In this document: positions 43,767-59,508 of the stretch, piece by piece
How positions within the stretch are numbered: position 1 is the first letter of the stretch
Layout: every line of letters begins with the position of its first letter
Source of the DNA: an uncultured Myxococcales bacterium
Lineage (GTDB): Bacteria > Myxococcota_A > UBA9042 > DTJE01
Direction: 5' to 3'
NCBI GenBank assembly: GCA_937975765.1
Contig: CALJUR010000081.1
Location: 1,706 to 65,705 of the forward strand
Length of the DNA: 64,000 nucleotides
Position numbers and translations under genes: made by a program
The notes under the pieces: model-generated
Seen by the model: only the letters and a program-made list of their open reading frames with translations
Database searches by the model: none
What the model was told of the DNA's origin: nothing

Positions 43767-44381
43767 GTGGCCGGGGTCAGCAGGGCGGATCGTCGCGAAC
43801 AGATCATCGAGGCCGCCCTGACCGTCTTCGCGGACAAGGGCTACCACCCGGCCGGCGTGGCCGACATCATCCAGCAGACCGGCATCGCCCGCGGCACGTT
43901 CTACCTGTACTTCACGGGGAAGCGGGCGGTGTTCGATGCGGTGCTGGACGAGATCTTCCTGCGAATCCTGGAACAGTTGCACCCGGTGAAGGTGCCCGAC
44001 CCCTGGGACGAGCAGGTGGTGATCGACCAGGTGCGCGGCAACGCCCAGCGGCTGGCGCGCCTGATGCTGGCCAACCCCCGCAGCGTGCGGGTGCTGTTCG
44101 GCGAGGCGGCGGGACTGGACCGCGAGGCCAGTGCGCGGCTGTCGGGGTTCTACGACCGGCTGGGCCACTGGGTGGGCGAGTCGCTGCAGGAGGGCATCCG
44201 GCTGGGGATCGTGCGGCCCTGCGACACGCTGGTGACGGCGCACGCCCTGATCGGCGCGCTGCGCGGCATGCTGTGGGCCTGGGCCGTCGGGCTGGTGCCG
44301 CTGGACGAGGCCACCCTGGTCGAGGAGACGCTGCGGCTGACCCGCGAGGGCGTGCTGCGGACCCGCGACCGCCCCGCCTAA
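43767..44381 (+). CDS. TetR/AcrR family transcriptional regulator (GTG start)
   Basis: N-terminal HTH EQIIEAALTVFADKGYHPAGVADIIQQTGIARGTFYLYF. It lies 50 nt downstream of the activase gene on the same strand. Confidence 0.8.
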   Translation: MAGVSRADRREQIIEAALTVFADKGYHPAGVADIIQQTGIARGTFYLYFTGKRAVFDAVLDEIFLRILEQLHPVKVPDPWDEQVVIDQVRGNAQRLARLMLANPRSVRVLFGEAAGLDREASARLSGFYDRLGHWVGESLQEGIRLGIVRPCDTLVTAHALIGALRGMLWAWAVGLVPLDEATLVEETLRLTREGVLRTRDRPA

Positions 44382-44526
44382 TTCAGGCGTAATTCAGGGA
44401 CAGTCACCATTATTGTTAAGACATCCCATTGGATTTGTTCATAAACACCCAAGTCGGACAATACTATCTTATAAAATCCATATGTTAGCCTACGAATAAT
44501 GGTGACTGTCCCTGAATTCCTGAATT
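44380..44526. repeat. AT-rich 147-bp element bounded by 32-35 bp inverted repeats (perfect 23-bp core), each arm ending in tandem AATTCAGG octamers; MITE-like element or an unusual long-stem hairpin
   Basis: Seen directly. The left arm is aattcaggcgtaattcagggacagtcaccattatt (44380-44414). The right arm is aataatggtgactgtccctgaattcctgaatt (44495-44526). An 80-nt loop of visibly low GC sits between them. The element begins 1 nt inside the TetR stop codon and ends 24 nt before the stop of the convergent porin gene. Confidence 0.6.
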
Positions 44527-44550
44527 GTGAGCTGCGCCTGAACCGGGGGG

Positions 44551-47796: not shown

Positions 47797-48084
47797 CTAC
47801 TTCTTCCGGGAGACGTTGATCGTCTGGCGCAGGCCCAGGCCGGCCTTGAAGAAGGGCAGGCGCTTCGGCGGGACGGTGACCTTCTCGCCCGTCTTCGGGT
47901 TCCGGCCCTCGTAGCCCTCGTAGTCCTTGACCGTGAAGTTGCCGAAGTTGCGGATCTCGATCCGCTCGCCGCGCTTCATCGCGTCGATCATCTGCTCGAA
48001 AACGGCGTTCACGACGATGGCGGCGCGGTCCAGGGTGATCTCGCTGCGCTTCGCAACCGCCTCGATCAGTTCCGACTTCGTCAT
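47797..48084 (-). CDS. HU/IHF family nucleoid-associated DNA-binding protein
   Basis: 95 aa: MTKSELIEAVAKR...RNFGNFTVKD...GRNPKTGEKVTVP...PFFKAG, the canonical HU/IHF fold signature. Confidence 0.85.
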   Translation of the reverse strand: MTKSELIEAVAKRSEITLDRAAIVVNAVFEQMIDAMKRGERIEIRNFGNFTVKDYEGYEGRNPKTGEKVTVPPKRLPFFKAGLGLRQTINVSRKK

Positions 48085-48220
48085 GGGAAATCCTCCGGTT
48101 CCTCAAACGAGTCGGAATGATAACCATATCTGCCGGCGGGTCAAGATTGAATTTTTCCGGCCCGTCTGCTATCCCGGGTCCGGTCCCGCGATCCCATCCC
48201 TTGTCACGGAGCATGCGATC

Positions 48221-50353: not shown

Positions 50354-50899
50354 ATGAACGGCGCCGAGAAGTTCGAGATCCTGATCTCCGAACGGGAACT
50401 GCAGGAGCGCATCCGGGAGATGGGCGCGCAGATCACGCGCGACTACCCCGAAGGCGACCTGGTCGTCGTCGGCGTGCTGAAGGGCGCGGTCGTCTTCCTG
50501 TCGGACCTGGTGCGGCAGATCGACCTGCCGCTGTCGCTGGACTTCATGGGCCTGTCGTCCTACGGCGACGCGACCACCTCCAGCGGTGTCGTGCAGATCA
50601 CGCAGGACCTGTCCAAGCCCATCCTGGGCAAGCACGTGCTGGTGGTCGAGGACATCGTGGACACCGGCCTGACGCTGGCCTTCCTGCGCGAGAACTTCCT
50701 GGCGCGCCAGCCGAAGTCCGTCCGGATCTGCACGCTGCTGCACAAGCCGTCGAACACGGTCAAGCACGTGCCGCTGGACTACGTGGGATTCACCATCGAG
50801 AACCGGTTCGTGGTCGGCTACGGGCTGGACTACGAGCAGAAGTACCGCAACCTGCCCTACATCGGGTTCCTGCCGCCTAGTGCGTCGGCGGCAGGATGA
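50354..50899 (+). CDS. hpt: Hypoxanthine-guanine phosphoribosyltransferase
   Basis: PRPP-binding motif VLVVEDIVDTGLT and N-terminal GVLKGAVVFLSDL. 181 aa. Confidence 0.85.
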   Translation: MNGAEKFEILISERELQERIREMGAQITRDYPEGDLVVVGVLKGAVVFLSDLVRQIDLPLSLDFMGLSSYGDATTSSGVVQITQDLSKPILGKHVLVVEDIVDTGLTLAFLRENFLARQPKSVRICTLLHKPSNTVKHVPLDYVGFTIENRFVVGYGLDYEQKYRNLPYIGFLPPSASAAG

Positions 50900-51536
50900 C
50901 CACGCGCGGGCCCTCGGGCAGCGCGTCCTTCGCGAACGCCAGCGGCGACGCCGCGTCCTGAATCGGCCACCCCCGCCGCCGCACCACCGCCAGGAAGTCG
51001 TCGATCGGCTGCAGCGCCAGTTTCACCGTCGGCCACAGGTAGTGCATCGGCACCACGACCCGCGGGCGCAGCGCCTCGACCGTCCGCGCGGCCTCCTCGG
51101 GCCCCACCGTGAACGTCCCGCCCACCGGCAGCAGCAGCACGTCCACCGGCGCCAGCGCCTGCGCCTCCTCCGGCCGCGGCACGCGCCCCAGGTCGCCGGG
51201 ATGGACGATCGACACGCCGTCGATCGCGAACCGGAAGCCCGTCACGAAGCCCCTTTTCGCGCCTTCCACCTCGTCGTGCGGCAGTTTCACTCCGCGGAAT
51301 TCGATCCCGCGCGCCGTGGCGGTGGCCCGGACCACGTCCGGGTTCCCGAACGCCGGGTCCAGGTGGAAGTGGTCCAGGTGATCGTGGGTGGACACGACGA
51401 CGTCCACGGGTTCGGTGAAGGCGCGCAGGCCCATCCGGCCCTGGAACGCCCCGGGCTGGTACGGGTCCAGCAGGATCCGCGGTCCCGCGTCGCCTTCCAC
51501 CAGGAAGCACGCGTGTCCGATGCAGGTCAGTCGCAC
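50877..51536 (-). CDS. MBL-fold metallo-hydrolase
   Basis: HxHxDH motif (STHDHLDHFHLD) and downstream His/Asp ligands. It overlaps the hpt 3' end convergently by about 23 nt. Confidence 0.7.
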   Translation of the reverse strand: MRLTCIGHACFLVEGDAGPRILLDPYQPGAFQGRMGLRAFTEPVDVVVSTHDHLDHFHLDPAFGNPDVVRATATARGIEFRGVKLPHDEVEGAKRGFVTGFRFAIDGVSIVHPGDLGRVPRPEEAQALAPVDVLLLPVGGTFTVGPEEAARTVEALRPRVVVPMHYLWPTVKLALQPIDDFLAVVRRRGWPIQDAASPLAFAKDALPEGPRVVILPPTH

Positions 51537-51570
51537 GGGTCACCTCCGCGTCGGGAAGGGCCTGCGGGGC

Positions 51571-53889
51571 CTACGGGGCCGGCATCACCCGCACCCGCAC
51601 CTCGCCGGGAACCTCCTGGCCCTGCAGCACCTCCGACCAGTGCCACGCCATCAGCATCGCACCTCCGGGCCCGCTCGTCGCGTCCAGGCTGCCGACGAAG
51701 CCTTCCGACGCGCCCTGGACCGGGACCGGGGTGCCGACCGACCCGGGTTCGCCGGTCGTCGTCAGCAGGCGCAGGACCACGGCCGACGGGTTGCCGAACG
51801 ACTCCCCCAGCACGAAGGTGGTCAGGAACGCGAAGCCCGTCCCGAACGGAAGGAACGCCTGGGCCATCGGGTACGGGACGTCCAGCAGCCGGCCCGCCTC
51901 GACGGTGGACTGCGCCAGGCACCACGACTGCCCGGTCGGCTCGCCCGCTCCGTCCAGCCGGAACGACGTCACGTCGAGCCCCGGGGATTCGCCCACCGTG
52001 ACCGACCGCAACACCGCGGCCAGGTAGGTGCCGTCTCCTGCCGGCACGCAGGCCGGCGCGATGCGATGGTCCTGCTCGAATTCCGCCAGATCCTGGGCGG
52101 GCCACAACTTCCCGTCGGCCCGCTGGTACACGACCCGGGGGTGGGTCCGGCGGGATGCCCGCTGGACCAGCGTCAACAGCGCGCCGCCTCCCTCCGGGCA
52201 GACCTGGCCCAGCCGGGCGGAGTCCAGCCCCGACGGGTCGCCGGCCACGATCACGGTCGCGGACGCCAGCAACTGGTCGGTGGCCGTGGCCACCCAGGAC
52301 GATCGGACCTCCCCGTAGACCCAGGAGTCCACCGTGTAGAGCAACTGCCACGCCACCAGCGCGGCGCCCTCGATCGCCCCGATGTCCAGGCGTTCGCCGA
52401 AGGCAGCCTCCCCGGGCAGCGAACCGGGGATCGCCGACGCGGACAGCGTCGCACCGGTCCAGTCCAGCAGGCGCAACTGGACCGCGTCGATGGACTGGAA
52501 GGCCAGCACGAACCGCCCCTGCCCCAGCGAGGCCAGCGCGGGACGGAAATGCCCCGACGCGGCAGGCACGGCCTCGGGCACGACCTGCACCGGTCCCAGC
52601 GTCCCATGGGTGCCCAAAGGGCGCACCTGCAGCACCGGCGCACCCTCGACGGACTCCTCCCAGGCGATCAGGCCGGAGCCGCCCCACTCCCACCAGGCGA
52701 CCACCGGGGCCTGGCCTGCCGTCGAGAGGGTCGCCAGCGCCCACCGGCAGGCGAGGCACAGCGGCGTCGTGTCCATGCCCGGGTCGCACTGTTCGCCGGC
52801 TTCCTGCAGGCCGTTGCCACAGCAGTCGGGCAGCACCCGGTGTTCGCAGCCGCCGTCCGCGGGCCGGCAGGAATCCGCGGTGCACGGGTTCCCGTCGTCG
52901 CAGTCCACCGCGGGCCCCAGGGCCAGGCAGATCCCGGAACGGCAGCCGTCCGGCCCGTTGCACAGGTCGCCGTCGTCGCACGCCGTGTCCTCGGGCAGGT
53001 TCGTGGCCACGCACCCCCCGGGCTCGACGCAGGAGGCCGTCCGGCAGGACCCCGGGTCGCAGGCCACGGGGGCACCCAGGCACTCGCCGGCCAGGCACGC
53101 GTCCGATCCCGTGCAGGCCAGCCCGTCGTCGCACGCCTCCCCTTCGCGGATCGGGCGCGCCGCGCACCGGCCGCTGGCCGGGTCGCAGACGTGCTCGCGG
53201 CAGGCCTCGGCGCCCGGGCATTCCACGTCGTCGTACCGGCAGGTCCCGTCCTCGCACCGGGGATGGACGCGGCACAGGTCCTGCGAGGCCGGGCAGGGGC
53301 GGGCGCCGGTGCACTCGCAGGCGTCGTTCGCCAGCACGCACTGGCCGTCCCGGCACTCGTCGGCGGTGCACGCCAGGCCATCGGCGTCGCAGGCCGTTTC
53401 ATCGGGCCGGGGCTGGTACTCGCACCGGCCGGTGGACTCGTTGCAGCCCTGGCCGACCAGGCAGGGCATCGCGGCACACTCCTTGCGGGCATAGCTGCAC
53501 CGCCCCTGCAGGCAGGTTCCGGCCCCCGCGGCGCACGCGTCGTCGGGGGTGCAGGGGTCGCCTTCCGCGCGGCCCGCGCACCACAGCGCCAGGCGCTCGA
53601 TGCAGCCGGCACCCAGCATCGACTCCGGCAGGCACTCGTGGCCGTCCGGGCACCGGTCGGTCCGCGGGACGTGCTCGCAGCGTCGCACGCCGTTGACGGA
53701 CAGGCCGCAGATGTCCTCGGTGCAGTCGATGCCGTCGGTGCAGTCCGCATCCCGCAGGCACTGGTCCTGGGCCGGGGTCAGGTCGGCGTTGTTGCCGCCA
53801 CCGCACGCCGCCACCGCCAGCGGGACCAGGAGCGGCAGCAGGAAGGGGACCCGGGCAATCCCTCGCGGGAACGATCGATTCGCGGGCAC
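51571..53889 (-). CDS. Cysteine-rich repeat lipoprotein (myxobacterial-type disulfide repeats)
   Basis: Lipobox LAVAACGG. Many CDDGNPCT / CDDGLACT / DCCGNGxxExGExCD repeat units are followed by a large beta-rich C-terminal domain. It is paralogous to the upstream gene. Confidence 0.7.
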   Translation of the reverse strand: MPANRSFPRGIARVPFLLPLLVPLAVAACGGGNNADLTPAQDQCLRDADCTDGIDCTEDICGLSVNGVRRCEHVPRTDRCPDGHECLPESMLGAGCIERLALWCAGRAEGDPCTPDDACAAGAGTCLQGRCSYARKECAAMPCLVGQGCNESTGRCEYQPRPDETACDADGLACTADECRDGQCVLANDACECTGARPCPASQDLCRVHPRCEDGTCRYDDVECPGAEACREHVCDPASGRCAARPIREGEACDDGLACTGSDACLAGECLGAPVACDPGSCRTASCVEPGGCVATNLPEDTACDDGDLCNGPDGCRSGICLALGPAVDCDDGNPCTADSCRPADGGCEHRVLPDCCGNGLQEAGEQCDPGMDTTPLCLACRWALATLSTAGQAPVVAWWEWGGSGLIAWEESVEGAPVLQVRPLGTHGTLGPVQVVPEAVPAASGHFRPALASLGQGRFVLAFQSIDAVQLRLLDWTGATLSASAIPGSLPGEAAFGERLDIGAIEGAALVAWQLLYTVDSWVYGEVRSSWVATATDQLLASATVIVAGDPSGLDSARLGQVCPEGGGALLTLVQRASRRTHPRVVYQRADGKLWPAQDLAEFEQDHRIAPACVPAGDGTYLAAVLRSVTVGESPGLDVTSFRLDGAGEPTGQSWCLAQSTVEAGRLLDVPYPMAQAFLPFGTGFAFLTTFVLGESFGNPSAVVLRLLTTTGEPGSVGTPVPVQGASEGFVGSLDATSGPGGAMLMAWHWSEVLQGQEVPGEVRVRVMPAP

Positions 53890-53899
53890 GGCGACCTCC

Positions 53900-56800
53900 T
53901 CAGGGGCACCAGGCAGTGGCGCCGGGCACGGTCACGTAGCCGGAAGGTCCGAAGCCGACGCAGACGGCCGGCCGGTCGGGGTGGCTGCAGTCCACGGCAC
54001 CGGCCGGGCAGGCCGGCGAGACCAGCGCCAGGTAGATGCCCGAGTCCCGCAGGTCCGTCCCGTCGTACCACGCCACGGCCGCCCAGTAGGGGTCCAGCCG
54101 CGCGACCGCCGGCGATGCGGACCCCTTCTCGACCGTCGGGGAGACCACCAGGTCGGCCCCGGGGACGCCGGCGGCATCCAGCGGGGTCAGCAGCACCCGG
54201 GTGTCGGTCGCGGCTACTCCCACCGAGGCCAGCAGGGCCCGGTCGTCGAACGCGACGAGGTCGGGCGCGTAGCGTCGCAGCCAGGTCGTCGCCGGGAAGG
54301 TCGCCTCGCCGGCCGACTGCAGGTCCGCCGCCACCCGGGTGCCGCCGCGCAGCACGCCGGCGTCCCGCTCGGCCACCCAGGCGACGCGATCCGTGCCGAC
54401 GGGTGCCAGGGCCAGGTCGCGCAGCGCGTCCCCGCCGGTGTCCGCCTGCACCTCGTCGCCCGCGGGCTTCCCGTCGACATCCAGCCGCCGCAGCATCACA
54501 CGGTGGACCGGGCCCTCCTGTTCCGAGATCCACGCCGCCACGCCCCCGTTGCCGACCGATGCCAGCTTCGGACGCCGCTGGATCCCCGCGGTGTCCTGGT
54601 TGAGGAGGGTGCCGGTGGGGTCGAAGGTGGGGGTGTCGTTCAGGATTTGCCACCCACCAATCGCGATGTCCAACGGAGAAGAACCATCGATAGAGAATGA
54701 CCAAGAGATAAGACCATTCCCATCGAGTGTTTCCGACAACGATGGTTCGAATCGATCCTCCTGATAGATTCCGACAGACGAGGTGAGAACTGACAGAGCA
54801 GACTTCGTCCCGTCGTCGTTTTTAGTCAGAGCAAGAACTTGCCGTTTTGTCCCCCCGAAGGACACCATCGACCCAGGCTCATCTCTTCTCGAAGCAATGG
54901 AGATAGCAAAACGCCCCTCCTGAGTTTCAAGGCTTTCTGCGGAGACTTTCTCCCAATCACGAACCTCAAGATCGACACCAAGTCCGCCACAAAGAACATC
55001 TAGTTGTTTCTTCGCCGCAAGATGAAGTCCGGATCTTCCGGCATTGGAAGATGCAACGATCTCGCTGTACCCCTTCCCCGCCGCGACCAGCACCGGGCCC
55101 AGCGGGGCACAACCGCTGCGCGCCCACAGGTAGAGGTCCAGGGTCGCCACGACCCCGCCCGCCGCGACCCGCACGGCCAGGTCCACCGGGTCACCGTCCC
55201 CCAGCCACGACCACGCCATCCGGGTCCGGCCGTCCACGACCCGGCACTCGTCCGGCGACACCACGAGTTCGCCCCGGTACAGTTTCACCGCGTCGCAGGC
55301 CGAGGCGCCCGCATCCAGGACCAGCAGCGCCAGGCCCGAAGGCACCCGCCGCCCCGGGATCCGGAAGGACGCTCCCGGCTCCCCTTCCGCGGGCCCCGCG
55401 CCCGCCTCCCCGCGCATCCCCTTCCCGCCGCTCCACCGGAATCCCGGCACCGCCCCGCCCGTCCGCAGGTCCCACCCCAGCAGCCGCCGCGGCAGCCGCA
55501 GGTCCAGTTCCTGGCACTCGCCGGTCCCCGCCTGGCACCAGGTCGGCCCGCACTCGCCCGCCGACGCCGCGCACCGTCCCTCCGGCTCGCCATCCCAGGC
55601 GCAGGTCCCCGCGTCGCATCGCTCGGCCGTGCAGGGGTCCCCGTCGTCGCAGTCCCCGTCGCCGACGCAGCACCCCGGGGTCCACGCCCCGGGAACGCAA
55701 CTCCCCGCCCGGCAGGCGTCCCCGGCCGTGCACGGGTTGGCGTCCTGGCACGGGGTCGCGTCCAGGTCCCGGTGCCGGCACCCGCCGGTCGCCGGGTCGC
55801 AGTCGTCCTCCGTGCACGGGTTGCCGTCGTCGCAGTCCATCGCCGTCCCGACGCACTGGGCCTGGGCGCTGCACGCGTCCAGCACCGTGCACGGGTCCCC
55901 GTCGTCGCACCCGATCGCGACCCCCAGCGGCGTCCACGCACATCCCGTCGCCGGCACGCAGGTGTCCGACGTGCAGGGGTTCCCGTCGTCGCAGTCCATC
56001 GCCGCCCCGGGCACGCACGCCCCGTTCGCGCACGCGTCCCCGGCGGTGCACAGGTCCCCGTCCTCGCAGGCCGCGCCGTTCGCGGGCGGGTGCCGGCAGG
56101 CCCCCGTCGAGGGATCGCACCGGTCCTCGGTGCACGGGTCGCCATCGACGCATCGCGGCCGGTGCCGGCATTCCCCGTCCAGGCACGTCCCGGCCTCGCT
56201 GCACACCGTCGCGGCCTCGCACTCGGTCCCGTCCGCGCGCGCCTCCTCGCCGCAACGGCCGGTCGCCTCGTCGCAGGTGGCCACCCGGCAGGGGTCGGCC
56301 GGCACCGGGCACTTCGTCAGGCTGCCGCCCGTCACGCACCGCTGGCTGGCCGGGTCGCACGACAGCGGCGGGGCGCAGAGGGTCTTCGGGCCGGGGCAAT
56401 CCTCGTCCTTCCCGCACTCGCACTCGTTGGCGCCCGCCTGGCAGGCCCCGCCCACGCACCGGTCCTTCGTGCACGCATTGGCATCCCGGTCGCAGCCCTC
56501 GCCGTCCGCCAGCGACTCGTACCGGCACTCCCCCGTCGCCTCGTCGCAGCCGCCGGACAGGCATTCCCGGACCGGGCACGCCTTCCGGCGCACGGGCACG
56601 CAGGCACCCGACACGCACGTCCCGCCGCCCTCCGCGCACCGGTCGATCGGCTGGCATGACGCGCCCTCCCGGGCCTCGTCGGCCACGACCCCGCACGTCC
56701 CGTCCAGGCACGTCCGGCGTCCGCAAGGCCCGGGGTCCAGGGCCGCGCAGTCCGCCTCCGTCCGGCAGGACACCGTCACGTCCCCGGGCACGTCGCTCCC

Positions 56801-56920
56801 GTCGCCCGTCCCGTCGCCCGGCCCCGGGTCGGCCGGGTCCCCGGACCCGCCGCATCCCGCCAGCCACACCACCACGCCGATCATCCAAGCCCTGCGCACG
56901 CTTCCCCCCGATGCCTTCAC
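53900..56920 (-). CDS. Giant cysteine-rich repeat lipoprotein (paralog of 51571..53889); GTG start overlapping the upstream stop (GTGA)
   Basis: The listed ORF 53900..58429 has a Gly/Arg-rich artefactual 5' half that overlaps the better-supported BamB-like gene. The in-frame GTG at 56920, preceded by GGAGACGGA, gives MKASGGSVRRAWMIGVVVWLAGCGG (lipobox). Repeats CDDGNPCTxDxC and CDDGDPCT are present. Confidence 0.6.
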   Translation of the reverse strand: MKASGGSVRRAWMIGVVVWLAGCGGSGDPADPGPGDGTGDGSDVPGDVTVSCRTEADCAALDPGPCGRRTCLDGTCGVVADEAREGASCQPIDRCAEGGGTCVSGACVPVRRKACPVRECLSGGCDEATGECRYESLADGEGCDRDANACTKDRCVGGACQAGANECECGKDEDCPGPKTLCAPPLSCDPASQRCVTGGSLTKCPVPADPCRVATCDEATGRCGEEARADGTECEAATVCSEAGTCLDGECRHRPRCVDGDPCTEDRCDPSTGACRHPPANGAACEDGDLCTAGDACANGACVPGAAMDCDDGNPCTSDTCVPATGCAWTPLGVAIGCDDGDPCTVLDACSAQAQCVGTAMDCDDGNPCTEDDCDPATGGCRHRDLDATPCQDANPCTAGDACRAGSCVPGAWTPGCCVGDGDCDDGDPCTAERCDAGTCAWDGEPEGRCAASAGECGPTWCQAGTGECQELDLRLPRRLLGWDLRTGGAVPGFRWSGGKGMRGEAGAGPAEGEPGASFRIPGRRVPSGLALLVLDAGASACDAVKLYRGELVVSPDECRVVDGRTRMAWSWLGDGDPVDLAVRVAAGGVVATLDLYLWARSGCAPLGPVLVAAGKGYSEIVASSNAGRSGLHLAAKKQLDVLCGGLGVDLEVRDWEKVSAESLETQEGRFAISIASRRDEPGSMVSFGGTKRQVLALTKNDDGTKSALSVLTSSVGIYQEDRFEPSLSETLDGNGLISWSFSIDGSSPLDIAIGGWQILNDTPTFDPTGTLLNQDTAGIQRRPKLASVGNGGVAAWISEQEGPVHRVMLRRLDVDGKPAGDEVQADTGGDALRDLALAPVGTDRVAWVAERDAGVLRGGTRVAADLQSAGEATFPATTWLRRYAPDLVAFDDRALLASVGVAATDTRVLLTPLDAAGVPGADLVVSPTVEKGSASPAVARLDPYWAAVAWYDGTDLRDSGIYLALVSPACPAGAVDCSHPDRPAVCVGFGPSGYVTVPGATAWCP
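54640..55065 (-). other. In-frame compositionally anomalous (low-GC, A/T third-position) segment inside the 53900..56920 lipoprotein gene
   Basis: Visibly AT-rich run, e.g. atcgatagagaatgaccaagagataagaccattcccatcgagtgtttccgacaacgatggttcgaatcg. The reading frame is preserved, encoding ...SEIVASSNAGRSGLHLAAKKQLDVLCGGLGVDLEVRDWEKVSAESLETQEGRFAISIASRR...ISWSFSIDGSSPLDIAIGGWQILNDTP... Codon usage switches to NNA/NNT there. Boundaries are approximate. Confidence 0.7.
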
Positions 56921-58329
56921 TCCGTCTCCCCCGCCGTCGCCTGGGCCGTCTGCCCCGTCCCGTACACGTCGGACCCGCCCCGGGCGAAGCGCCCGGCGAG
57001 GTCGTCCGGGAACTGCCACGCCACCAGGTGCCCCGACTGCGTCGCCATCCACAGGTTCCGCCCGGCCAGCAGCGGCGTCCCCGCGATCGCCACGGGCACC
57101 GTGAACGACAGCCCCTCCGTGAACGCCACCGCCCCGGCCGCGTCCGTCCGCAGCAGCGACGCCACCTTCCGCCCGTCTGAAGCGATCGCAGCAACGCGCG
57201 GCGCCGCTCCCAGGAACGGGTACGCCGTCCCGGCCGCCATGCCCAGGTCGCCGCGCCCCACCAACGAGCCGCGGTCGAACAGGTCCCGCACTACCGCGAC
57301 CTCCCCGGATTCCAGCACCGCCACCACCGCCCCGGACGCGTCCGCCAGCAGCCCGCCGGCGACCTTCCCGTCCAGCGGCGTCGTCCACTCGGTCGTGAAC
57401 GTCGCGCCCTTCTCGGTCATCGCCGCCAGCCGGCCGTCCTCCATCGCCACGAACACCCGCCCATCCACCTCGACGGGAGGCGCCGCGGGACGCGCCGGCA
57501 GCATCGCCACCGCGACCGGCCCGGACGGGTTCGCCCCGATTCGCACCGCGTGCAGCGTCCCGTCCCTCCACAGCACGTACAGGCGCAGCCCGCCGGCCGA
57601 CACCACGGGCGGGAAGGCGTCGTCCTCCCCCGCCGTCACCGGGGCCGCCGTGAAGACGCTGGCCGTGCGCGACTTCTCGTCGAACAGCACGACCTTGCCG
57701 GAGACCGTCGGCCAGCCCGCCACGCCGAAGTCCAGGTCGCGGCGTCCGGAGGTCGCTATCCCCCCCACGGGCGTATCGGACGGGATCGCGTCGATCTGTA
57801 CCCCCGTCAACGCATCCCTTCGTACCACCCCCCCGGAGTGCGCCACGTACACGTGGACGCCCCGGCTGACCGTCGGCGCCAGCACGGTCGCCGCCGAACC
57901 GACCTCGACCGCCTCCTCCAGCCGACCCGCCGGGTCCACCCTGCGCAGCACCAGCGTCGAGGCCCCGCCCGCGTCCACGGTGCGGCACGCCACGAAGACC
58001 CCGCCGTCCGCGTCCGCCACCGGCCCGGCCGGGTCGCGGCACTCGAGGTCGTGGTCCGCCACCAGGCAGTCGGTGTCGGCCGACCGGTCGCCCTCCACCA
58101 CCGCGCAGCAGCCGTCCCCGGCCACCGGCAGCGCCCCGTCGCAGCGGCCCGACTTGAAGCAGTAGCCGTCCTCGCAGGCGGTGTAGCCCTGCCCGGCGGG
58201 ACAGTCCGCCAGGGTCCGGCACTTCGGCGCCTGGACGTCGTCGTAGCACGCCGCCAGCAGCGGCACGGCCAGCGCCAGAAGTCCGCACGGGAACCGGCGC
58301 GACGGGGGGCATCGAGGGGGGGGAGACAT
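56917..58329 (-). CDS. PQQ-like beta-propeller repeat lipoprotein (BamB-like)
   Basis: Start MSPPPRCPPSRRFPCGLLALAVPLLAACYDD (lipobox). The N-terminus has a C-rich knot. The body has repeated motifs of about 40 aa (..GxVVAV..GEVAVV.., ..GRVFVAMEDGRLAA..) typical of PQQ/BamB propellers. Confidence 0.6.
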   Translation of the reverse strand: MSPPPRCPPSRRFPCGLLALAVPLLAACYDDVQAPKCRTLADCPAGQGYTACEDGYCFKSGRCDGALPVAGDGCCAVVEGDRSADTDCLVADHDLECRDPAGPVADADGGVFVACRTVDAGGASTLVLRRVDPAGRLEEAVEVGSAATVLAPTVSRGVHVYVAHSGGVVRRDALTGVQIDAIPSDTPVGGIATSGRRDLDFGVAGWPTVSGKVVLFDEKSRTASVFTAAPVTAGEDDAFPPVVSAGGLRLYVLWRDGTLHAVRIGANPSGPVAVAMLPARPAAPPVEVDGRVFVAMEDGRLAAMTEKGATFTTEWTTPLDGKVAGGLLADASGAVVAVLESGEVAVVRDLFDRGSLVGRGDLGMAAGTAYPFLGAAPRVAAIASDGRKVASLLRTDAAGAVAFTEGLSFTVPVAIAGTPLLAGRNLWMATQSGHLVAWQFPDDLAGRFARGGSDVYGTGQTAQATAGETE

Positions 58330-58438
58330 CGGGTTCACCTTGTCCTGCCAGGGTTCGGGAGCCCTTCGATGGTAGGTGTCCGAAGGGGACGGGGTCAAGG
58401 AAACGACGGCCGGATACCGCGCGAGGCACCCTGACGGG

Positions 58439-59224
58439 TCAGCGCCCGCCGCCCTCGGTACGGGACGGGTCGCGGGCCGGGATGGTGTTGAACCAGGATT
58501 GCAGGAAGGCGCGCAGCGGGTCGATCTCCTTGCCGTACAGGTAGGACGGGCCCAGCGACGGCCGCCCCTTCTCGTCCGTCAGCCCCGCCGACGGCGCCAT
58601 GTCCCCGCGCAGCACCTCGCGGTTCCCCTCGTCCGGCTTGCTGCGCCACATGGCCCGGCGCGCGCGCTGTTCGGCCTGCCACTGCGACTGCAGCCGCAGC
58701 AGGTCGTCCAGGTCCGCGGGCAGCGACGGCGCCATCGCCCGCAGCAGCCGCACCGTGGCCTCGGCATCCGCGGTGGCCCGGTGGGCGGTGTCCATCGTGA
58801 CGCCGAAGTGCCGCACCGCCTCCTCCAGCCGGTGCCGGTTCCCCGGCATCAGCCCGCGCGCGAACACCAGCACGTCCACGACGTGGCACTTCGGCAGTTC
58901 CAGGCCCACCCGCCGCAGTTCCGCCTGCAGCAGCGGCAGGTCGTAGCCCAGCACGTTGTACCCGACGACGACCTGCCCCTGGATGCGCTGCACGATCCCG
59001 GCGGCGAAGTGCGCGAACGTCGGTCTTCCCTTCAGGTCCGCGTCCGTCACGCCGGTCTTCTCCAGCGACGCCTCGGACAGCGGCCGCGTCGGGTCCATCA
59101 TCTCGCAGAACGGGTCCGTGACCGTGTCGCCCTGGAACGTCACCACGGCAATCTCGAAGATCCGGTCCTCGGTCACCGACAGGCCGGTCGTCTCCGTGTC
59201 CAGCCCGACCAGCGGCAGTTCCAT
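58439..59224 (-). CDS. DEDD-family 3'-5' exonuclease (DnaQ/epsilon-like)
   Basis: Exo I motif GLDTETTGL, Exo II VGYNVLGYDLPLL, Exo III HRATADAEAT. The start was trimmed to MELPLVGLD with GGAGG upstream. The listed ORF extends to 59449. Confidence 0.7.
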   Translation of the reverse strand: MELPLVGLDTETTGLSVTEDRIFEIAVVTFQGDTVTDPFCEMMDPTRPLSEASLEKTGVTDADLKGRPTFAHFAAGIVQRIQGQVVVGYNVLGYDLPLLQAELRRVGLELPKCHVVDVLVFARGLMPGNRHRLEEAVRHFGVTMDTAHRATADAEATVRLLRAMAPSLPADLDDLLRLQSQWQAEQRARRAMWRSKPDEGNREVLRGDMAPSAGLTDEKGRPSLGPSYLYGKEIDPLRAFLQSWFNTIPARDPSRTEGGGR

Positions 59225-59508
59225 CCACTGTGCCACGATGCCTCCTGTGCCGGCGCGCGCCCCTTCGACGCGCCCCTGGACGCGCCCCTGGACGCGCCCC
59301 GGATCCCTCGCCACCGCCTTGTTGACGTTCCGGCGATGACATCCTATTCTAGTTCGTGCCGGATCGGACGGCGCCCGCCGGATCGGTCCGGACCCCTTCA
59401 GGGTTCCTGTTCCCCCAGCCGGTGGGGGAGACCAATCCGCCCGTTTCAACGCCCGCTCTCTCCCGCCGGCTCACTCCACCCTGGGGTCCCCGGGGGTACG
59501 CAGGCGCA

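Follow-up and report, generated by a model that had tools for sequence, protein, structure and literature searches.

Within a 64-kb window of a metagenome-assembled contig from an uncultured Myxococcales bacterium (CALJUR010000081.1; the window is the whole stretch of DNA that was analysed, and all coordinates refer to it), a single minus-strand gene encoding a Cys-rich lipoprotein is interrupted in composition, though not in reading frame, by a tract of low GC content at 54644-55057 (minus strand, 414 nt, 138 codons). We consider it likely that this tract encodes a hypervariable, allelic part of what is probably a cell-envelope lipoprotein of a Myxococcales-like lineage, comparable to the variable region of flagellin, that its alternative forms are exchanged between strains by recombination, and that its low GC content represents a local compositional equilibrium.

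A compositional break within one reading frame

Profiling in 150-nt windows shows that GC content drops from 0.73-0.80 on either side to 0.49-0.58 at ~54650-55060; the tract as a whole has a GC content of ~50%, as compared to ~75% in its flanks and a mean of 71.7% for the entire window. In the frame of the gene, GC content at third codon positions (GC3) falls from 0.90-1.00 to 0.30-0.60 across the tract codons, and first positions are lower as well: GC1/GC2/GC3 are 0.58/0.48/0.45 within the tract versus 0.76-0.79/0.57-0.59/0.93-0.94 in the flanks. The reading frame remains open throughout. Inspection of the sequence places the 5' break at 55057 (...GGG TAC AGC GAG ATC / GTT GCA TCT...) and the 3' break at 54644 (...TGG CAA ATC / CTG AAC GAC ACC...). 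A preliminary description of this DNA, made from the sequence alone, had reported an in-frame low-GC segment at 54640-55065; GC and GC3 profiling bears out its existence and refines its limits to those given above.

The same description had raised the possibility that the dip falls within the normal variance of the genome, which proved not to be so. Measured in 60-codon windows, GC3 across the 28 other genes of the window averages 0.944 (standard deviation 0.062) with a minimum of 0.55; the minimum in the tract-bearing gene is 0.35, below that of every other gene, and the dip is thus statistically extreme. The adjacent paralogue at 51571-53889, which had been described as free of any such break, indeed has none, its GC3 minimum being 0.87.

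The low-GC tract occupies the same position in relatives

The protein belongs to a rare family: when 1.84 billion representatives were searched exhaustively with HMMER, an E-value threshold of 1e-30 was passed by 10 proteins and one of 1e-3 by 196. DNA was available for relatives from JGI (L002, a metagenome, together with L006 and L008), ENA (L007) and Logan (L009), for two lake Myxococcales metagenome-assembled genomes, or MAGs (L004 and L005), and for the remote homologues L010 (33% identity) and L011-L015 (28%). All of the family DNA recovered sits on contigs of 64-73% GC.

Each of the six orthologue contigs that reach the segment carries an in-frame low-GC tract in the same alignment columns, with a GC3 of 0.55-0.64 as opposed to 0.83-0.94 in the flanks. 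Over the shared columns, low GC3 (0.45-0.64) is seen in the window gene and in L002, L004, L005, L006, L007 and L009; in L008, a short fragment, the value rises to 0.78 (51 codons). In L010 and L011, a shorter dip of ~50-60 codons (GC3 ~0.45-0.55) starts at the equivalent position. The GC content of the region is approximately constant (0.50-0.60) even though the hosts range from 64 to 72% GC, and the switch between flank and tract falls at nearly the same codons in lineages whose proteins are only 51-59% identical to that of the window. In all five orthologues that span the tract, its length is 134-137 codons.

These comparisons bear on several readings that the preliminary description had put forward. 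Recent horizontal acquisition by this genome is not supported, as orthologues are equally low in GC at the same place. Insertion into a pre-existing gene fares no better, given a tract of conserved length in five of five spanning orthologues that forms an integral part of the predicted propeller fold. Signs of an acquired islet are likewise lacking: there is no presence/absence polymorphism among the five spanning orthologues, no donor, and no repeats at the tract ends. What survives of the proposed recombined cassette, or swapped variable domain of a surface protein, is a swapped and sharply bounded allelic module; the foreign insert does not. The alignment of orthologues that had been suggested as a check gave an answer in two parts, with equally low GC at the same site but a very different sequence.

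An assembly chimera or an engineered insert, both of which had also been suggested, is extremely unlikely, and so is contamination. The source is a metagenome-assembled genome, and one related contig (L003) ends in an Illumina adapter, both of which speak for such an artefact; against it stand the open frame, the retained fold anchors, a confident structural model, and an architecture that recurs in independent assemblies from unrelated samples. In addition, the orthologue-clade form of L002 was assembled twice independently from different runs (P0001/P0154), and a 994-aa product identical to that of the window gene is present on two contigs from two sources, its exact counterpart being recorded on contig DAIUFA010000012.1 of NCBI GCA_036844845.1 (a 118-kb MAG contig).

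L003 was itself a candidate truncated variant, and was set aside as uninformative: the contig stops 190 bp before the tract, in adapter sequence. L003 (ENA ERZ724101 NODE_24577) is 100% identical to window 55246-57893, and its last ~44 nt are an Illumina TruSeq adapter, AGATCGGAAGAGCACACGTCTGAACTCCAGTCAC, which creates a false stop codon and with it the spurious "truncated" protein P0002. P0153, a C-terminal fragment, is uninformative as well; we take its N-terminal peptide, MTGVQTCALPIS, to be adapter-derived.

The tract is hypervariable and its edges are sharp

Alignment of orthologues reveals that mean pairwise amino acid identity is ~0.33 within the tract, hereafter the hypervariable region (HVR), versus ~0.75 outside it; pairwise values range from 24 to 53% in the HVR and from 60 to 100% in the flanks. 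The contrast is independent of how closely the strains are related, as three pairs illustrate (nt, nucleotide identity; aa, amino acid identity):

L002 and L004: flanks, 91-93% nt; HVR, 49% nt and 36% aa
L005 and L006: downstream flank, 89% nt and 92% aa; HVR, 46% nt and 36% aa
L005 and L007: downstream part of the gene, 100% nt; HVR, 48% nt and 39% aa

Overall, strains that match at 91-100% nt in the flanks fall to 46-49% nt and 33-40% aa in the HVR.

BLASTN comparison of L002 with L004 gives collinear alignments at ~91-92% identity over 6.5 kb upstream and 2.3 kb downstream, separated by a no-match gap of exactly 391 nt in both. The switches in identity and in GC content are sharp and coincide to within a few bases. 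Between L007 and L005, identity rises from ~45% to 100% within a few bases at ...AACGTCGCCATCACC; in L002/L004, the 5' switch comes directly after ...GAGTTGGCGATG, and the 3' switch lies ~25 nt further downstream than in L007/L005.

Despite differing at ~50-60% of all nucleotide positions, the forms of the HVR are homologous. Full-length forms find one another in reciprocal tblastn searches (E ~1e-7 to 1e-31), each locus offers one site per form, at the expected position, and a set of anchor residues is kept across forms (F199, G217, G218, G232, L240, V244, E253, P254, G262, W268, S269, S275 and I282). All eight forms are 24-53% identical to one another, a sample small enough to leave room for intermediates. 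Little variation is seen within a form: that of L002 was recovered twice, and a gene of the remote subfamily shows 0 differences in 2817 nt across five samples. Judged from these comparisons, the tract appears to be a hypervariable allelic region with sharp edges and constant length whose forms are exchangeable. The L002/L004 and L005-L007 comparisons, which extend from -6.5 kb to +3.3 kb around the gene, revealed no second hypervariable stretch, and a co-varying partner is thus lacking in the immediate neighborhood. This absence fits either homotypic recognition or an external partner such as a phage, prey or predator.

Probable recombination of forms between strains

Relationships among the metagenome contigs are incongruent between the HVR and its flanks, and blocks of 100% identity abut the tract. 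The HVR of L002 is nearer to those of L006 (47%) and L008 than to that of its near-twin L004 (33-36%), with the flanks showing the opposite. L007 is 100% identical to L006 from ~position 850 to the end of the contig (2.8 kb), yet only 83% identical to it in the 500 nt adjoining the tract, where it instead matches L005 at 100% (~340 to 1200); its HVR matches neither. More broadly, in L005 1-3700, L006 6500-10207 and L007 1-3681, which derive from three different samples, blocks of 100% and 83-93% identity alternate downstream of the HVR. This pattern implies either recent recombination tracts of hundreds to thousands of bases among co-circulating strains or strain-chimeric assemblies.

The contigs L005, L007 and L008 each end, at their start, inside the ~400-nt HVR. 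Such ends may reflect strain heterogeneity, with within-sample polymorphism breaking the assembly graph, or a drop in coverage.

A dedicated diversifying device would offer a different route to the same diversity, whether by gene conversion from silent low-GC cassettes, as with pilE/pilS, or by targeted mutagenesis, for example by a diversity-generating retroelement. The very sharp boundaries and constant length of the HVR would suit such a device, and the contig ends within the tract, which could reflect heterogeneity within a population, could also be counted in its favor. Examination of the DNA argues otherwise. A second copy of the tract is absent from the 64-kb window (repeat search of 40-64 kb; blastn with 7-nt words over the whole window), tblastn of all eight forms against all recovered family DNA reveals no extra copies, and the forms differ at about half of all positions rather than just at template adenines. 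The predicted fold, moreover, is a propeller and not a C-type lectin, and the ~25-nt shift of the 3' switch point between strain pairs points to general recombination rather than a fixed site. We accordingly regard a dedicated device as distinctly unlikely.

Predicted architecture of the lipoprotein

The gene and the parts of its product are as follows:

53900-56917, minus strand: whole gene, encoding a Cys-rich lipoprotein of ~1005 aa (from the open reading frame and the GC3 frame)
56849-56917, minus strand: putative lipoprotein signal peptide MKASGGSVRRAWMIGVVVWLAG/C with lipobox L-A-G-C (read from translations)
55520-56770, minus strand: Cys-rich repeat stalk built of DGNPCT/CxDxxC units of ~53 aa; GC-rich and not hypervariable
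55100-55504, minus strand: conserved beta-sandwich-like domain between stalk and propeller (model residues 1-135)
54020-55093, minus strand: predicted seven-bladed beta-propeller (model residues 138-495)
54644-55057, minus strand: low-GC HVR, 138 codons (model residues 150-287, approximately blades 1-3)
53903-54019, minus strand: conserved C-terminal Cys-containing tail (...CPAGAVDC...VCVGFGPSGY...WCP)

The gene starts with GTG at 56917 and stops at 53900-53902; a mechanically called 1509-aa reading frame runs on into a separate upstream gene. An alternative internal ATG at 56884 would give the 994-aa product that is called in the public record, while an independent contig, L003, has the longer N-terminus annotated in P0002. 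By inspection, MKASGGSVRRAWMIGVVVWLAG/C satisfies the lipobox pattern [LVI][ASTVI][GAS]C, and the orthologue P0154 has the signal MRQLRVVGLVFWIAG/C, ending ...VFWIAG/C. These sequence features make it probable that the protein is a cell-envelope lipoprotein, lipid-anchored at its N-terminus.

The N-terminal 450 residues are Cys-rich; Pfam matches Dicty_CTDC to three stretches of this stalk (E=4.8e-19), the underlying DNA contains 159-nt direct repeats, and L002 and L004 align across it unbroken at ~92%. Neither Pfam nor NCBIfam scans matched any model to the C-terminal 534 residues. The protein family is previously undescribed and uncharacterised.

An AlphaFold2 model of this C-terminal part (me93d1baa3fbb), computed from 21 family members, has a predicted local distance difference test score (pLDDT) of 91.7 and a predicted template-modelling score of 0.91, with pLDDT values of 78-93 inside the HVR; an earlier model from 4 sequences (pLDDT 47) left the tract unmodelled and was discarded. 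Residues 1-135 are predicted to form an all-beta sandwich (pLDDT 84-96), whose mean pairwise identity among orthologues is 62-84%. In the model, 27-28 strands then follow in groups of four, giving the seven four-stranded antiparallel sheets of a seven-bladed propeller, and a VAAWISEQ-type motif recurs on the second strand of each blade. By strand order in the model, the HVR extends from strand 1 of blade 1 to strand 3 of blade 3, such that approximately three of the seven blades would constitute the swappable part. In the tail, the columns C499, G502, C506, V514, C515, G517, Y523, W532 and C533 are invariant or nearly so over the 21 family members.

One hit of the representative search, P0031, is a protein of 479 aa with a flagellin C-terminal domain and internal repeats, 4 stretches of which match the propeller-blade region of the family (E=5e-11). 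Conceivably, this is a flagellin that has built its variable central part from similar blades.

The low GC content as a probable local equilibrium

Examination of third codon positions bears on why the HVR is low in GC. Its GC3 is equal at columns where the amino acid is conserved (0.57) and where it varies (0.55), its third-position bases are roughly uniform, and at shared amino acids the third positions are 21-50% identical between forms, which is to say saturated. Since they are saturated, the composition should reflect a present substitution equilibrium rather than ancestry, and the force that holds GC3 at ~0.9 in the flanks would therefore be inactive in the HVR. From these sequence patterns, we infer that the low GC content is a local compositional equilibrium and not a foreign relic. 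Mutation in bacteria is reportedly AT-biased, and recombination is the most economical candidate for the missing GC-raising force. Recombination and GC3 in bacteria are reported to be linked in 'GC-Content Evolution in Bacterial Genomes: The Biased Gene Conversion Hypothesis Expands' (PMC4450053).

The strongest competing account invokes repeated import from a lower-GC pool that has escaped sampling, whereby each form would have been recombined recently from a homologous gene of organisms with ~50% GC and would still carry the un-ameliorated signature of its donor. Consistent with this idea, the tract uses codons much as a ~50%-GC genome would, the phylogeny of the HVR is incongruent with that of the flanks, and GC content in the HVR is similar (0.50-0.60) across hosts of 64-72% GC. 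Searches with the segment alone, of the kind that the preliminary description had called for, nonetheless came back empty: there was no match among 5.8 billion protein clusters nor, by tblastn, in phage records, and no donor was found. Every family member for which DNA is at hand lies on a contig of 64-73% GC, and import would require all forms in all lineages to be recent even though the switch codons are nearly shared at 51-59% amino acid identity. On balance, import appears improbable.

A nucleic acid-level function of the low GC content, be it an internal promoter, a structured RNA or a rare-codon translational pause, would explain why the position of the dip is conserved across the family. 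Inspection of the eight alleles, though, reveals no conserved nucleotide run of at least 6 in the tract, Rfam has no match anywhere in the window, there is no sigma-70-like promoter, and a single terminator-like site is within chance expectation. A pause or RNA would also leave unexplained the exact coincidence of the dip with the hypervariable part of the protein, and we judge such functions very unlikely.

Under the explanation that we favor, an exchanged allelic region at compositional equilibrium, the population would hold many deeply diverged three-blade forms of equal length and with common fold anchors, and the rest of the gene would diverge only at an ordinary rate. Homologous recombination would carry the forms from strain to strain, and since crossovers would fall in the conserved sequence that adjoins the HVR, identity would jump within a few bases from ~45% to 91-100%. 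The forms would be maintained by selection, either balancing or negative frequency-dependent, acting on a surface used for recognition, the partner being a ligand, phage, predator or kin. Being too divergent to recombine with one another, the forms would let the HVR escape a recombination-linked force on GC3, either GC-biased gene conversion or efficient selection for G/C-ending codons (weakened via linkage), and the HVR would then drift to an AT-biased mutational equilibrium. Of this scheme, the data directly show that the tract is conserved in position, hypervariable, constant in length and sharply bounded, that strains are mosaic and that a template copy is lacking nearby; the modelled fold belongs to this part as well.

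A number of points weigh against this explanation. Selection is deduced from the pattern of forms, with the ratio of nonsynonymous to synonymous substitution (dN/dS) ruled out as a measure by saturated synonymous sites between forms; surface exposure and a binding function are read from the architecture alone, and the assignment of the HVR to blades 1-3 from the order of strands in a predicted model. The proposed cause of the low GC content is an argument from equilibrium, and a lower-GC donor pool may exist unsampled. Silent donor copies may likewise lie elsewhere in the genomes, beyond the DNA examined. The alleles recovered number only eight to nine, all from metagenome assemblies, and some of the mosaic blocks could be strain chimeras made by the assembler; the diversity of many forms holds without relying on those blocks.

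Compositional anomalies of this kind are routinely scored as horizontal transfer. Here, the call of "foreign DNA" is replaced by a better-supported one, that of a conserved, hypervariable, putative recognition module in an undescribed family, and because it occupies the same codon positions in relatives down to 28% identity, at sites saturated between alleles, the anomaly most likely reflects a local evolutionary regime rather than ancestry. A bolder proposal, which we put forward only tentatively, is that the lipoprotein is a new polymorphic recognition receptor of uncultured Myxococcota that derives its specificity from a swappable three-blade module, and that GC3 in the HVR falls to ~50% because recombination between alleles is impossible. 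If this were true, GC3 in a 72%-GC bacterium would collapse to ~50%, with near-uniform third positions, wherever inter-allele recombination is impossible, and the locus would provide an unusually clean intragenic test of recombination-linked forces versus mutation bias in keeping bacterial GC content high. Escape from recombination would here come with a sharply bounded internal control, a GC3 of 0.93 lying beside one of 0.45 within one gene, one transcript and one expression level. The protein would also be a candidate for a polymorphic receptor by which uncultured freshwater Myxococcales-like bacteria recognise kin, phage or prey, and allele typing in these bacteria could track strains.

Comparison with known polymorphic systems

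The closest precedent is the 'dual-level diversity' of flagellin (FliC), in which conserved ends surround central hypervariable forms (Hu & Reeves 2020, PMC7018530). As in flagellin, the flanks diverge to an ordinary extent (in flagellin, at housekeeping level), close strains differ extremely in the central region, and the forms appear to be swapped by recombination that ends in the conserved flanks. Flagellin forms are extremely divergent with no intermediates seen, they vary little within a form, and a lack of recombination between them is held to let slightly deleterious changes accumulate (PMC7018530). The present protein differs in being an unrelated lipoprotein with a Cys-rich stalk and a predicted beta-propeller rather than a filament subunit. 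Its forms are of equal length (134-137 codons) and recognisably homologous, whereas the hypervariable regions of 76 E. coli and S. enterica flagellins have no sequence blocks in common (PMC7018530). The collapse of GC3 from 0.93 to ~0.5 is very pronounced here; the main text of the flagellin paper contains neither 'GC content' nor 'G+C' (PMC7018530).

TraA, the kin-recognition receptor of Myxococcales, is likewise a myxobacterial cell-envelope protein that combines Cys-rich repeats with one polymorphic domain (PMC6372800, PMC3820747). The phylogeny of its variable domain is incongruent with that of the rest of the protein, which has been attributed to horizontal transfer and recombination (PMC6372800), and the lack of a co-varying hypervariable partner gene near the HVR lipoprotein recalls the homotypic recognition of TraA. 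The two differ in arrangement. TraA has an N-terminal PA14-like variable domain and a MYXO-CTERM end, and the order is reversed in the window protein, which runs from lipobox through Cys repeats and sandwich to propeller. A Pfam scan of the full protein returned Dicty_CTDC only and no PA14 (PF07691), and an NCBIfam scan matched 0 families, among them neither MYXO-CTERM nor a TraA model; its C-terminus reads ...PGATAWCP and lacks a hydrophobic or basic tail. As to a traB-like partner, the neighbors are a 493-aa protein and a Cys-rich paralogue, and no OmpA or TSP3 match was found in the two proteins scanned. Membership in the TraA family is thus ruled out by the missing PA14 and MYXO-CTERM elements and by the reversed domain order, with the variable part in the C-terminal half.

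Two further systems show looser or partial resemblance. The mod genes of type III restriction-modification systems in Haemophilus and Neisseria also carry an in-frame central hypervariable block between conserved regions that is subject to recombinational allelic exchange (PMC1557822), a loose likeness, given that mod regions are neither of one length (594-750 nt) nor of one predicted structure and belong to cytoplasmic DNA-binding enzymes, as opposed to the fixed length and fold of an exported protein. Targets of diversity-generating retroelements share a localised hypervariability in the ligand-binding domain of an envelope protein, binding being presumed in our case; there is no template repeat here, differences extend beyond adenine-templated sites, and the tract, at 414 nt, is much longer and belongs to a propeller. 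In kind, the HVR follows the known dual-level-diversity pattern; what sets it apart is a three-blade propeller cassette of fixed length together with an unusually clean intragenic collapse of GC3.

Gene neighborhood and other low-GC spots

Two genes adjoin that of the HVR lipoprotein:

51571-53889, minus strand: downstream paralogue, 772 aa, Cys-rich with a propeller-like C-terminus
56917-58398, minus strand: upstream gene for a 493-aa probable lipoprotein

BLASTP gives 40% identity between the HVR protein and the paralogue over the Cys region, and a weak similarity across the 3' edge of the HVR; the paralogue has no hypervariable region, and orthologous paralogues align unbroken. The 493-aa protein has only a sub-threshold NCBIfam match to BamB (19.5 bits versus a cut-off of 285), and the place of its gene is kept in L001, L009 and the P0007 locus. 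The order of genes across window 50877-59470 recurs in those same three loci: an RNase T-like exonuclease, the probable lipoprotein of 470-490 aa with its sub-threshold BamB-type match, the HVR lipoprotein, one to two Cys-rich paralogues, and a metallo-beta-lactamase-fold protein. This conserved cluster may be an operon of unknown function.

Two other low-GC spots in the window, 44382-44535 and 48083-48220, were considered as kin of the tract and rejected, both being intergenic and unrelated to it in sequence. The first lies in an AT-rich spacer between convergent genes (44375-44540), which contains a near-perfect long inverted repeat, aattcagggacagtcaccattatt ... aataatggtgactgtccctgaattc, and has 'taattcagg'-type direct duplications at its ends. 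As RNA, the spacer folds with -59.5 kcal/mol (z = -7.3 relative to shuffled sequences), and it has the appearance of either a small palindromic mobile element of the miniature type or a bidirectional terminator of unusual size. The second belongs to a small gene for an HU/IHF-like DNA-binding protein at 47797-48102 (minus strand), whose somewhat lower-GC upstream region (48083-48220) is shared with a divergent gene; this upstream region, ordinary by its looks, accounts for the third low-GC spot of the window.

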